From assembly GCA_021513715.1 (NCBI GenBank), contig CP084167.1, positions 704,001-768,000 on the forward strand: a stretch of DNA of 64,000 bases, read 5' to 3'. A program made the translations under genes and the position numbers. The stretch's first letter is position 1; every line of letters starts with the position of its first letter. Shown piece after piece: positions 21,380 through 25,321 of the stretch. The notes under the pieces were generated by a model. That model was not told the origin of the DNA. It made no database searches and saw only the letters and a list, made by a program, of their open reading frames with translations. The DNA is from Candidatus Heimdallarchaeum endolithica. Its GTDB lineage: Archaea > Asgardarchaeota > Heimdallarchaeia > Heimdallarchaeales > Heimdallarchaeaceae.

Positions 21380-24300
21380 ATGAAAAAAAAAGTAGTTACT
21401 TTAATTTTTTTAGTGTTATTTATATTTCAAGCATCGTCATTATTTATAGAGACTAATGCTTCAAACTACCTATCTGTAAAACTTAAATGGAAAAACACTA
21501 AAACTTATGATTTTGGAGATATTTCTTTCTTTGATTATGACAAAGATGGAAAACTAGATGTTGTTCTTAAAACTGTGGATGGTATAGAAATTTACAACCA
21601 TAAAGGTGAACTAATAAAAAGAATTCCTTGCTTCATTTACAATACTCCCACTATTACAGATTTAGAAAAAGATGGAAGTATAGAATTTCTTGTTCCTAAT
21701 TATTATGGGATAGATATTTATAATGCTACTGGAAGCATAAAGAAAAGTCTGAGTTTTTATGGTAGAAACGCAAGGATAGTAGCTGCAGATATTAACAATG
21801 ATGGAAAAGAAGAGATAATTTATCATTCAATAAACGAAATATTTTGTTTTAACTACAATTTAGAAGAATTGTGGAGTTATCAGTTTGATAATCAAGATTA
21901 TTATGGAGATGTTTATGATCTAGTAGTTAACGCTGATTCTGATTTAGAAAAGGAGATAATTGTATATTTTGACCAAACTATTTTCTTGTTTGATACAAAT
22001 GGAGAGAAAATATGGTCAAAAGACCTTCCTTCTGAAGGAATTGTGGCTTATGACTTTAATAATGACGGTATAGATGAAATAATTGGCACTAAATCATCTG
22101 ATCATACTATTTATTCTTTAAACAGCAAAGATGGTTCAGAACTATGGAACAATGATATTGCTGTTAATTTAAATCCTTTACCTGTTGATCTTGATCAAGA
22201 TGGAGAAGTAGAAGTAATTACTCTTTCAACTGACAAAAATGCTTATACTTCTTACATTAATTACATTAATGGAGAAACAGGAGAAACTGAAAAACAAGTG
22301 GTTGCAGATTACAATTTTTTTGGTAATGCATATTATGATTTCTTTCCTGAATTTCCATCTGTAGGAGATTTTAATGGAGATGGGACATTAGATCTTATCT
22401 TTTTTGCTTTTTCATATGGTTATACTGTTTCAACAATGATTTATACAGCAAATGGTGCCAGGATAGCAGATTTTGCAGAAGGAATAATAACAGCGCCAAC
22501 AGTAGTAGATTTAGATAGAAATGGGAGAACAGAAATACTATTACTAGACTATACAGGAATTTACTGCTATGAGATTCTGGATGTTACATCTGGAAACAAT
22601 ATCTGGTATAAAAATGGAGGAAATGTAGGCAATTCAATGGTAGCTGATTCAGATGGAGATTTATTAGATGATCTAAGTGAAGAGTTTTACGGTACAGATA
22701 AAAATAACCAAGATAGTGATGGAGATGGACTAATAGATGGAATGGAGGTTTTAGGCGCTCGTTCTTCTCCATTAATAAAAGATACAGACGGAGATGGTCT
22801 AACAGATGATGTTGAATATGAAATAGGATTTAATACGAGATTGGATGACTTGAATTTAGATTATGATGGAGATGGTTTGAAAAACTATGATGAAGTCTTT
22901 GTTTATTCAACAAACCCTTTGTCTAATGACACAGATAGTGATATATTACTAGATAATGAAGAAATTAATACTTATGGAACAGATCCAACAAACAATGATA
23001 CAGACTCTGATGGAGTTATAGATGGTGAAGAAGTTTTTACTTATGGAACATCTCCTGTCGATAAAGATTCAGAAGACGATGGAATGGACGATGGATATGA
23101 GATATTATACAACTTAAATCCTCTTATTAACGATAGTTATGGAGATATTGACTCTGATGGTTTATTGAATATTGAAGAGTTTACATATAATTCCAACAGT
23201 TCAAATGTAGATACAGATAATGATACAATTTTAGATGGTGAAGAAGTTCATACTTATGGAACATTACCAACGAGCGATGACACAGATGGAGATAACCTCA
23301 AAGACAATGAAGAAATTAATATTTATGAAACAGATCCTACAAAAAAAGATACAGATTCAGATATTATGTGGGATGGTTGGGAAATTCAATATGGTTTTAA
23401 TCCCTTAATTAACGATGGAGGGGAAGATTTAGATTCTGATGGACTTTCTAATGCTGATGAATTCCTTTATTCAACTGAACCAAACAACACTGATACAGAT
23501 TCTGACAAACTCCTTGATGGAGAAGAAGTACATACTTATGGAACAGATCCAAAGAATATGGATAGTGATTATGATTTGCTCACTGATTATGAAGAAGTAA
23601 AAATTTACTCAACTAATCCTGCTTCAAATGATACAGACAGTGACTTAATGGATGATTATTATGAAGTTAATAATGGTTTAAACCCACTAGCAAATGATAC
23701 TTTAGGTGATCTTGATAATGACACTTTAACAAATTATGAAGAATTTTTGCTTGGTACTTCACCTAACAATAATGACACAGATGGAGATGGTATGAGCGAT
23801 GCTTTTGAATATCAATATGGACTTATTCTAACAGACAATGATTCTTCATTAGATAAAGATGAGGATGGATTGTCTAATCTTGATGAATTTTTATACAACA
23901 CCGATCCTACTTCTAATGATACAGATGGAGATGGAATGTTTGATGGTTTTGAAGTTCAATACAATCTTAATCCTATTTTAAATGACTCAGCAGGAGACCC
24001 TGATGCTGACGGAATTTCTAATATTGATGAGATGAACTACGGTTCTTCTCCTATAAGTTCAGATACAGATGGTGATCTTTTAACTGACCCTGAAGAGATA
24101 TTCATTTATCACTCTAATCCTGCAATAAAAGATACAGATAAAGATGGAATAGATGATGGAGATGAGGTACTAAAATTTGGTACAAGCCCAACAAATGAGG
24201 ACACAGACGGAGATTCTCTTAACGACTATGTTGAGCTATTTGTTTTCTTCACTGACCCAACTGACCCTGATACAGATAATGATGGTATGAACGATGGTGA

Positions 24301-25321
24301 TGAGATTGAAATAGGAAAAAATCCACTTGTCAAAAACTATTACACTCCTCTCTCCAAGCTACTACTCATTTTACCTATCGTTGGAGGAATTACTGGAGCA
24401 GGTGTTATAGCATACTTTTCAGTTATTTTTTCAAGAAATTTGAAAGAAAGAAAACGAAAAGAAATCGTAGAAAAAGAGATTATGTTACTCAAATCAGAGC
24501 ATCTTAATTTAGATGACAGAATTAACATCTTATCAAAGAAAAAGTTACTCTTTGCTGATAAATACACTTTTCGTTCTTTAATAGATATTACTAAACTTTA
24601 CTTCAACTTTCTTGCTAAATTTGATGACAAATATACTCTAATTCATAAATATAAAGAAGTAAGTAATCTCCAAGAATGGGAAGAAGTAAAAGAGAAAACT
24701 TTTTCATCGTTCAAAAAACTACTAAATGTAATAAAAACAGGGCTTGACAATTTAAATATTCATGATATTATTCAACAACAGTATCCTTCTTTGAAAGATA
24801 TTGATAAGAAAAAGGAACTTACATCAAAAGATGTCTTACAAATTCATTCTGATGGTAAAGATTTACACTCTTATATTGAAGAATTCAAGAAATATCTCAA
24901 GATTTTACTCAGAAGATTAAATGCTCTAGAATCACTTTTCAGAACAAAGGACGATCTTTTGAACATTGCTGCTTCGAGTTCAATTATTGCGACTTTAAAA
25001 GAAAAAGATGAGTTAGTAACCCAACTTGAGAAAAAAGAAATTAAATACATCAAAGAGAAAATAAATGCTGTTAATCATTGTATTTTTTGTGGAATTCAGA
25101 TTCCAGAAAATACAAAAACATGTTCAAACTGTCAACATCCACTTCCCTCTTGTCCTATTTGTGGAAATACATTCAAATTCTTTGATGAAATCTATACTTG
25201 TCCAGAATGCTTTGATAAGATTCATAAGGATGAACTTGAGATTTGGTTAGGAGACAAAGGAACGTGTCCTAAGTGTAATAAAGCTATTACATTATACAAC
25301 TTGGACATAGAGATAATCTAA
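21380..25321 (+). CDS. Single-pass surface protein: FG-GAP/VCBS repeats, DxDxDG Ca-binding (TSP3-like) repeats, TM, cytoplasmic Zn ribbon + RING-like finger
   Basis: Signal peptide; DINNDGKEEI/DFNGDGTLDL repeats; many DTDGDGLxDxxE...TxP units; TM at ~24360-24430; C-terminal CIFC..CSNC..CPIC..CPEC...H...W..CPKC. Confidence 0.85.
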   Translation: MKKKVVTLIFLVLFIFQASSLFIETNASNYLSVKLKWKNTKTYDFGDISFFDYDKDGKLDVVLKTVDGIEIYNHKGELIKRIPCFIYNTPTITDLEKDGSIEFLVPNYYGIDIYNATGSIKKSLSFYGRNARIVAADINNDGKEEIIYHSINEIFCFNYNLEELWSYQFDNQDYYGDVYDLVVNADSDLEKEIIVYFDQTIFLFDTNGEKIWSKDLPSEGIVAYDFNNDGIDEIIGTKSSDHTIYSLNSKDGSELWNNDIAVNLNPLPVDLDQDGEVEVITLSTDKNAYTSYINYINGETGETEKQVVADYNFFGNAYYDFFPEFPSVGDFNGDGTLDLIFFAFSYGYTVSTMIYTANGARIADFAEGIITAPTVVDLDRNGRTEILLLDYTGIYCYEILDVTSGNNIWYKNGGNVGNSMVADSDGDLLDDLSEEFYGTDKNNQDSDGDGLIDGMEVLGARSSPLIKDTDGDGLTDDVEYEIGFNTRLDDLNLDYDGDGLKNYDEVFVYSTNPLSNDTDSDILLDNEEINTYGTDPTNNDTDSDGVIDGEEVFTYGTSPVDKDSEDDGMDDGYEILYNLNPLINDSYGDIDSDGLLNIEEFTYNSNSSNVDTDNDTILDGEEVHTYGTLPTSDDTDGDNLKDNEEINIYETDPTKKDTDSDIMWDGWEIQYGFNPLINDGGEDLDSDGLSNADEFLYSTEPNNTDTDSDKLLDGEEVHTYGTDPKNMDSDYDLLTDYEEVKIYSTNPASNDTDSDLMDDYYEVNNGLNPLANDTLGDLDNDTLTNYEEFLLGTSPNNNDTDGDGMSDAFEYQYGLILTDNDSSLDKDEDGLSNLDEFLYNTDPTSNDTDGDGMFDGFEVQYNLNPILNDSAGDPDADGISNIDEMNYGSSPISSDTDGDLLTDPEEIFIYHSNPAIKDTDKDGIDDGDEVLKFGTSPTNEDTDGDSLNDYVELFVFFTDPTDPDTDNDGMNDGDEIEIGKNPLVKNYYTPLSKLLLILPIVGGITGAGVIAYFSVIFSRNLKERKRKEIVEKEIMLLKSEHLNLDDRINILSKKKLLFADKYTFRSLIDITKLYFNFLAKFDDKYTLIHKYKEVSNLQEWEEVKEKTFSSFKKLLNVIKTGLDNLNIHDIIQQQYPSLKDIDKKKELTSKDVLQIHSDGKDLHSYIEEFKKYLKILLRRLNALESLFRTKDDLLNIAASSSIIATLKEKDELVTQLEKKEIKYIKEKINAVNHCIFCGIQIPENTKTCSNCQHPLPSCPICGNTFKFFDEIYTCPECFDKIHKDELEIWLGDKGTCPKCNKAITLYNLDIEII

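Follow-up and report, generated by a model that had tools for sequence, protein, structure and literature searches.

A gene in the 64,000-nucleotide stretch of the Candidatus Heimdallarchaeum endolithica genome analysed here (the window) encodes a 1313-residue surface protein that joins a beta-propeller and a Ca-binding stalk to a zinc ribbon and a RING finger on the other side of a transmembrane helix. We consider it on balance probable, judging from sequence and structure models, that this is a RING ubiquitin ligase that is anchored in the membrane and belongs to the Asgard ubiquitin–ESCRT system, because its RING is of the type that adjoins Asgard ubiquitin genes. The architecture, the RING fold of the model, the retention of the E2-contact residues, a full ubiquitin cascade in the host and purifying selection are all directly seen.

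Architecture and ectodomain

Table 1. Features of the gene and its product (coordinates are positions in the window)
Feature	Position	Strand	Basis
Whole gene	21380..25321	+	Single ORF, 1313 aa, type I membrane protein
Signal peptide, aa 1-27 (predicted cleavage)	21380..21460	+	Basic N-terminus; hydrophobic aa 3-27, peak 2.55
FG-GAP/VCBS-type beta-propeller, aa 28 to ~402, 8 blades (model)	21461..22585	+	Pfam FG-GAP_3; structure model
Acidic stalk, aa 423-985, 24 bacterial TSP3-type Ca-binding repeats of 21-26 aa	22646..24334	+	PF18884, E 2.4e-24; repeat register; 21% Asp
Single transmembrane helix, aa 994-1018, then basic stop-transfer stretch	24359..24433	+	Hydrophobicity; sequence
Cytoplasmic long-helix bundle, aa 1020-1228	24437..25063	+	Structure model
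C4 zinc ribbon: C1234, C1237, C1248, C1251	25079..25132	+	Pfam; motif
RING finger, Asgard C4-H-H-C2 type: C1258, C1261, C1274, C1277, H1282, E1285, C1296, C1299; also I1260, W1289, P1297	25151..25276	+	Motif; Pfam; family alignment; model
Glu1285, zinc-ligand position 6 (family His)	25232..25234	+	Family and orthologue alignments
Asn1300, linchpin position (family Lys/Arg)	25277..25279	+	Family alignment

The only hydrophobic segments in the protein are aa 3-27 and aa 991-1018, and of its N-glycosylation sequons 15 lie ahead of the transmembrane helix and none behind it. Pfam matches cover the propeller (FG-GAP_3, E 4e-8), the stalk (TSP3_bac, E 2e-24), the ribbon (DZR, aa 1234-1277, E 1.8e-4) and the RING (zf-RING_2, aa 1257-1300, E 0.003 alone and 7.9e-5 in a genome search), the zf-RING score being below the curated cut-off. 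An earlier note, made from the DNA alone, had proposed a signal peptide, one transmembrane helix, a long Ca-binding stalk, a helical linker and a zinc ribbon, all of which these analyses and the modelled helix bundle support. Its description of the propeller as FG-GAP/VCBS also holds, and 'integrin-type' applies to the short Ca motif only, because the model (pLDDT 80.8) has eight four-stranded groups and is structurally closest to Bap1 of Vibrio cholerae (6mlt; Z 25.9, rmsd 3.6, 343 residues aligned) and, tied with it, BamB. An integrin alpha propeller would have seven blades, and integrin chains are absent among the top 50 structural matches; the Ig-like thigh and calf domains and the short GFFKR tail of integrin alpha are also missing, with a TSP3 stalk and a 295-aa tail in their place. 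Bap1 has an eight-bladed propeller with Ca motifs, and bacterial surface proteins share the PF18884 repeats; however, both lack a cytoplasmic RING, and Bap1 is a secreted matrix protein. The helical linker has generic matches only (STAT2 coiled coil, spectrin repeats; Z up to 10.3, a range common for helical bundles) and can be assigned to no family. It is seen only in orthologues, three of which align, and no paralogue was found in the host genome.

The RING finger and the host ubiquitin system

The RING has the spacing CxxC-x12-CxxC-x4-H-x2-E-x3-W-x6-CxxC, with x12 and x4 where the earlier note had read x13 and x3. Among 138 homologous modules the ligand-6 column contains His in 125, Glu in nine, Asp in three and Ala in one (an acidic residue in 12), giving a family pattern of C4-H-H-C2. 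A RING-like finger had been correctly recognized; its Glu1285 replaces a His, not a Cys as had been supposed, because 125 of the 138 have His there. The x12 spacing occurs in 135 modules, and the Trp four residues after ligand 6 and the CPxC motif are also present in the Heimdallarchaeum RING. The E2-contact sites are strongly conserved (Ile/Val in 133 modules, Trp in 127, Pro in 134) and all are kept here as I1260 (loop 1), W1289 (helix) and P1297 (loop 2). All four ribbon cysteines are invariant in 100 aligned modules. A metal-free AlphaFold2 model of aa 1020-1313 has a pLDDT of 94.6 (above 93 in the RING region), and its segment aa 1256-1313 can be overlaid on the RING of RNF4 (Z 8.2, rmsd 2.1 Å, 57 residues); this is the cross-brace fold on which the earlier note had staked its proposal. 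With seven canonical ligands plus Glu, the predicted zinc sites are C/C/H/E (site 1) and C4 (site 2), and Glu1285 probably still binds zinc. ESM Atlas leads are archaeal RING clusters, all below 0.9.

The linchpin column is Lys/Arg in 80 of the 138 modules and Asn in eight, and Asn1300 would probably make for a weak or mono-ubiquitinating ligase; together with Glu1285 it may have weakened ligase activity. Activity is nevertheless still possible, because Rbx1 has Asn at this position, as does one of the RINGs encoded beside ubiquitin in other Asgard genomes (37% identity over 51 aa). Four such genomes have RING genes adjoining ubiquitin, all with the C4-H-H-C2 pattern. The RING E3s of Caldiarchaeum subterraneum (srfp) and Helarchaeia (bioRxiv 10.1101/2023.07.25.550441) share with the Heimdallarchaeum RING the Ile, the Trp and a Trp-to-linchpin spacing of 11, and the Caldiarchaeum enzyme needs I30 and W58, the counterparts of the Ile and Trp kept here, and its linchpin R69 (PMC5654768). 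These operon-encoded E3s are soluble proteins of 76-127 aa adjoining ubiquitin, whereas the Heimdallarchaeum RING ends a 1313-aa membrane protein encoded elsewhere in the genome, is preceded by an additional zinc ribbon and differs at ligand 6 (Glu) and at the linchpin (Asn). Prok-RING_1 (PF14446), whose bacterial members have transmembrane helices and are located near ubiquitin-system genes, matches weakly (E 0.019, below the cut-off, half of the model covered).

The host genome encodes ubiquitin, E1, Vps22/25, UEV-Vps23-Vps28, Snf7 and Vps4 in one cluster, as well as JAB-family proteins and a single canonical E2 with the HPN motif, the catalytic Cys and both RING-contact loops. The ubiquitin, E1 and catalytic E2 expected by the earlier note are all found. 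Seven RINGs are scattered over the genome, where ubiquitin has no small RING gene next to it, so the host's E3s should be among these seven. Modelling, run without controls, of the host E2 in complex with the ribbon, the RING and three zinc ions scored 0.00, a value that counts neither for nor against binding. Asgard ubiquitin and ESCRT systems have been reconstituted with small soluble RINGs only, and neither a membrane cargo nor a membrane-bound ligase is known for them. An Asgard E1–E2–RING cascade has been reconstituted (bioRxiv 10.1101/2023.07.25.550441).

A word-index search with the tail found two close relatives only, and orthologues were recovered by exhaustive search. The sister species has an intact orthologue of 1314 aa (76% identity, dN/dS 0.14), and conservation between these species is highest in the RING (89% identity, dN/dS 0.13). 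The sister species also has Glu at ligand 6; it is a derived variant of the family, because two distant orthologues (P0003 and P0004) have His. The linchpin residue varies across the orthologues (N, N, G, K), and no ubiquitin-system genes lie beside the gene in three genomic contexts; these two observations, with the His-to-Glu change and an Asn where Caldiarchaeum needs R69, count against an E3 role. A TPR gene lies upstream in all three contexts, but was rejected as a conserved partner, the two compared aligning over an 81-aa C-terminal stretch only (30%). Promoter and terminator scans were at the level of shuffled sequence, and sigma-70 patterns do not apply to archaea; a search of sequencing runs listed none from RNA.

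Relatives of the ribbon–RING tail and alternative readings

At least 20 other proteins have the same tail behind swapped ectodomains, and are Asgard wherever named. The protein appears to be built as a mobile ribbon–RING tail fused to an ordinary prokaryote-type adhesin. We surveyed the module against E2 by family in 150 Asgard genomes: it was detected in every family with a detected E2, and in none of those without (0/26, 0/5 and 0/7 in families f10, f20 and f23). Family f13 seemed an exception, with a RING and no E2 by single-protein query, but divergent E2-family matches are present in all four of its genomes tested. This co-occurrence is supported by few independent lineages.

The layout resembles that of RNF43/ZNRF3, RNF13, GRAIL/RNF128 and plant RMR proteins, which share type I topology and a cytoplasmic RING, and the family profile weakly matches the RING domains of ZNRF3, RNF13 and RMR (E 1e-5 to 7e-4). 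The likeness to RNF43/ZNRF3 and GRAIL drawn in the earlier note extends to topology, but not to the PA ectodomain, in place of which this protein has a propeller and TSP3 repeats, or to the RING-H2 ligand order (C3-H2-C3 in the eukaryotic RINGs; C4-H-E-C2 here, C4-H-H-C2 in the family). The Heimdallarchaeum RING is also C-terminal, about 240 aa from the membrane, behind the helical bundle and ribbon. The layout is best regarded as analogous, and comparison does not indicate shared descent of the whole protein.

The solved structures closest to the tandem itself, IFT144 and MIOS, are interaction modules of eukaryotic coat complexes. The best full-length profile matches are IFT144/WDR19 (E 1e-9, profile positions 9-93 of 95), MIOS, IFT122, WDR24 and WDR59, with matching spacing of ribbon and RING; IFT144 outranks classical E3 RINGs, and Foldseek places IFT-A and GATOR2/SEA chains first (E 4.5e-5). 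These subunits are soluble coat proteins with a WD40 propeller and alpha-solenoid on the RING side, whereas the Heimdallarchaeum propeller is beyond the membrane and its linker is a long-helix bundle. The RINGs of IFT121 and IFT122 bind partner proteins, and those of the matched IFT-A and GATOR2 subunits mediate protein contacts (bioRxiv 10.1101/2022.08.09.503213). The tail could likewise be a non-catalytic or partner-dependent interaction module that forms dimers with another RING protein or attaches the adhesin to a scaffold in the cytoplasm, any ligase activity coming from the partner. This is a less probable but substantial alternative, favoured by the IFT-A and GATOR2 matches, by a Glu at ligand 6 in human IFT144 too, and by both Glu1285 and Asn1300 being off consensus. 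Set against it, zinc site 1 is lost in IFT144, where the second Cys and the His are gone, as is the Trp, whereas the Heimdallarchaeum RING keeps three of four site-1 ligands as well as Ile, Trp and Pro. The module also co-occurs with E2 among the Asgard families and is of a type found in ubiquitin operons.

That the tail is a passive tag binding ubiquitin-system or other proteins, for instance in removal of the adhesin by a different ligase, or that it serves some purpose other than ubiquitination, we consider improbable. The host encodes about 29 TSP3-stalk surface proteins with interchangeable tails, of which this one alone has a RING, and a RING-like sequence in archaeal ribosomal protein aS34 indicates that the fold can serve other ends; however, the E2-contact residues are conserved family-wide, and Asgard families without a detected E2 lack a detected module too. 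A decaying remnant is very improbable: two off-consensus residues and a sub-threshold Pfam score would suit it, but dN/dS is 0.11 across the ribbon and RING (dS ~0.9), none of the ten Cys nor the Trp has been lost, and the fusion persists in orthologues whose tails are only 30-34% identical. Purifying selection largely refutes this reading.

Proposed function and implications

As a membrane-anchored ligase, the protein would be exported and anchored N-terminus out, its Ca-stiffened stalk holding the Bap1-like propeller off the cell to bind a surface, a glycan or a partner cell. Inside, the RING would recruit the single canonical E2 and ubiquitinate the protein itself or adjacent membrane proteins, which could then pass to the UEV-Vps23/ESCRT machinery or the proteasome. 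Control of the ligase inside by ligand binding or clustering outside would be a further step, and is rather unlikely overall. Similarly unlikely is the full scheme of modular receptor-type ubiquitin ligases in Asgard archaea, with interchangeable ectodomains (propeller plus TSP3, Ig repeats, beta-helix, solute-binding domain) controlling the ribbon and RING across the membrane and a tandem ancestral to the IFT-A/GATOR2 C-termini, of which this would be a contact-sensing member ubiquitinating membrane cargo for ESCRT. In the openly accessible literature searched, we found neither a description of Asgard ectodomain–TM–RING proteins nor an Asgard link to the IFT-A/GATOR2 zinc modules.

The membrane-ligase reading is directly testable because the genome has one ubiquitin, an adjoining E1 and one canonical E2, and its naturally occurring changes at ligand 6 (His to Glu) and at the linchpin, compared with the His-bearing orthologues, offer a probe for which Asgard RINGs are catalytic. 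Asgard archaea are close prokaryotic relatives of eukaryotes, and a surface protein that crosses the membrane once and has its RING in the cytoplasm would be the missing piece of ubiquitin-dependent membrane-protein sorting before eukaryotes. The similarity of the tandem to IFT144 and MIOS suggests that eukaryotic coat complexes took one of their modules from archaea.

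Architecture and surroundings of the surface protein

The 1313-aa surface protein studied here (the query) contains two hydrophobic segments by hydropathy, the second of which is followed directly by a run of basic residues. Because of this basic run, and because all 15 N-glycosylation sequons lie N-terminal to the second segment, the sequence fits a type I topology with a predicted cytoplasmic tail of 295 aa. Pfam reports FG-GAP_3, bacterial TSP3 repeats and a double zinc ribbon, with a zf-RING_2 match below cut-off. Hydropathy, Pfam and the cysteine positions bear out the single transmembrane (TM) helix, Ca-repeat stalk, zinc ribbon and RING-like finger described in the earlier note, although the finger spacings given there (x13 and x3) are x12 and x4 in the sequence.

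Features of the query, its neighbours and other loci (plain numbers, window nucleotides; aa, query residues; L-numbers, loci; G000 C1, contig of the host genome)
Feature	Position	Strand	Remarks
Query ORF	21380-25321	+	1313 aa, one ORF
First hydrophobic segment	aa 3-27		
TSP3-repeat stalk	aa 423-985		24 repeats, 21-26 aa each
Second hydrophobic segment	aa 991-1018		
C4 zinc ribbon	aa 1234-1251		from last ten Cys of the query
RING ligands	C1258, C1261, C1274, C1277, H1282, E1285, C1296, C1299		
Beta-helix (NosD-like) surface protein	16285-18645	+	
TPR protein	19217-21010	-	weak C-terminal longin match (E 0.011)
DUF5700 putative zinc peptidase	25423-26439	+	
Cluster of ORFs with shared C-terminal motif	G000 C1 611845-640165		outside window
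Soluble protein, ~690 aa	L006:2614-4491 (G000 C1 1477613-1479490)		winged-helix/PCI-like repeats, ribbon and RING tail
C-terminal RING	L007:2610-5600		fused to Dna2-type nuclease-helicase
N-terminal ribbon and RING	L008:2901-5891		fused to ResIII/DEAD helicase
Transposase-like ORF (judged from sequence)	L012:6463-7488		begins at 3' end of canonical E2 gene
Query orthologue, apparently in two genes	L131:5767-9788		propeller-TSP3, 697 aa; TSP3-TM-RING, 595 aa

The order of the neighbouring beta-helix and DUF5700 genes is kept in the sister species, as is the divergent TPR neighbour. The propeller had been called integrin-type, but in the model of aa 28-427 (pLDDT 80.8) it consists of eight blades of four strands each, and the best structural matches, Bap1 of V. 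cholerae (20% identity, Z 25.9) and BamB, are both 8-bladed. By sequence it is related at 21-34% mostly to VCBS/FG-GAP proteins, those with a named source being bacterial, and also to a plant family. We assign the modelled head to the prokaryote-type adhesins and not to integrin heads.

About 29 TSP3-stalk surface proteins with varied tails are encoded in the host genome, and only the query has a RING. A shared C-terminal motif, I-D-x-L-L-x-x-F-x-x-W-E-x-x-G-x-G-K-K, ends 21 ORFs on the same contig: four encode soluble proteins and the other 17 encode membrane proteins, every one of the latter with TSP3-type repeats. Reversed sequences gave no hit to this motif, which looks like an interchangeable cytoplasmic tail of a second kind.

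The ribbon and RING module

The model of aa 1020-1313 (pLDDT 94.6) comprises a bundle of long helices, then the ribbon and then the RING, and superposition of the last on RNF4 (Z 8.2, rmsd 2.1 Å) supports a cross-brace fold. Between the query and the sister species, conservation is highest in the RING (89% identity, dN/dS 0.13) and among the lowest in the propeller (67%, dN/dS 0.22). The glutamate at ligand 6 had been taken to replace a cysteine, but it stands in a histidine column: the residue is His in all six paralogous RINGs of the host and in 125 of 138 homologous modules, with Glu in nine, Asp in three and Ala in one. Because His predominates in this way, we assign the family to a C4-H-H-C2 type in which E1285 is a His-to-Glu substitution; by alignment this Glu arose within the genus, because His is kept in orthologues that share the TSP3-TM-linker-ribbon-RING layout and have 30-34% identity in the tail.

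The E2-contact positions of the family (Ile/Val in 133, Trp in 127 and Pro in 134 of the 138) are kept in the query, and the linchpin, the position after the last RING cysteine, is Lys/Arg in 80 and Asn in eight, including the query. Residues I30, W58 and R69, required for activity of the Caldiarchaeum RING E3 (PMC5654768), correspond to I1260, W1289 and N1300. The C4-H-H-C2 pattern is common to the ubiquitin-adjacent RING genes of four other Asgard genomes, and one of these RINGs, with Asn at the linchpin, aligns to the query at 37% over 51 aa.

The top hit of a profile of the tandem is the IFT144/WDR19 C-terminus, aligned over the full length (E 1e-9); RING E3s follow, over the RING half, and then MIOS (4e-7), IFT122, WDR24 and WDR59. 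Foldseek agrees with this result. The RING half of the family profile is also hit by the archaeal ribosomal protein aS34 (PDB 9fhl_a, E 3e-4). In IFT-A, according to bioRxiv 10.1101/2022.08.09.503213, such RINGs are degenerate and serve in binding partner proteins, IFT144 shares the Glu in the ligand-6 column, and the two off-consensus residues of the query leave a real chance that it is a weak or partner-dependent RING. We consider this the less likely reading; IFT144 no longer has the second Cys, the His or the Trp, all three of which the query keeps.

Ubiquitin system and distribution of the module

Ubiquitin and an E2, on which the earlier proposal depends, are both present in the host. 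A single cluster encodes Snf7, Vps4, Vps25, ubiquitin, E1, Vps22, a UEV-Vps23-Vps28 fusion and a Ras-family GTPase. The E2, a protein of 156 aa encoded elsewhere, carries both loops that contact RINGs as well as the HPN motif and the catalytic Cys; it turned up in 40 of 41 related genomes. JAB-family genes are also present. No small RING gene lies beside ubiquitin in the host genome, and its seven RING proteins are scattered and fused to helicases, winged-helix arrays or membrane proteins. Most genomes of the order encode proteins that are similar in size to that at L006 and end in a ribbon and RING. Glu stands at ligand 6 also in an N-terminal ribbon and RING from another genome (L049).

Across 150 Asgard genomes, each family that yielded an E2 also had matches to the module profile, and the module was not found in families f10 (0/26), f20 (0/5) and f23 (0/7), where the E2 query also failed except in one genome with 12% contamination. 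Family f13 seemed to break this pattern, but the four f13 genomes tested encode divergent E2-family proteins; the f10 and f23 genomes tested yielded none. With few independent lineages, this co-occurrence counts as supporting evidence and does not amount to a statistical test.

A class of predicted membrane-anchored RING proteins

A TM helix is predicted ahead of the motif in 75 of 139 hits, and at least 20 hits combine an N-terminal signal and an ectodomain with a single TM helix and a C-terminal ribbon and RING; by these predictions the query's layout belongs to a class and is no one-off. Among the ectodomains are Ig repeats, a beta-helix, DUF2341 and a family-5 solute-binding domain. Where a source is named, it is Freyarchaeum or a record labelled Heimdall-, Loki- or Thorarchaeota. 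The exact propeller-TSP3-RING fusion was found in only a few genomes, Heimdallarchaeaceae where named. The homologue P0064, with a family-5 solute-binding domain, one TM helix and the ribbon and RING tail, is the strongest candidate sensor of small ligands in this class. A polytopic version is widespread in this order (loci L036, L035, L056 and similar), with 7-9 TM helices in a membrane part without a Pfam family and a ribbon and C4-H-H-C2 RING at the end; these are candidate polytopic membrane E3s.

Archaea are already known to have RING E3s, and eukaryotes to have receptor-type RING ligases; within the literature examined, of limited coverage, we found no paper on Asgard ectodomain-TM-RING proteins. 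For the query, we lean towards a ubiquitin ligase acting on membrane proteins. The Ca-stiffened stalk would present the adhesive propeller, and the cytoplasmic RING would recruit the host E2 and ubiquitinate itself or neighbouring membrane proteins, for handling by ESCRT or the proteasome. Given how varied the ectodomains of this class are, outside ligands could plausibly control the putative ligase.
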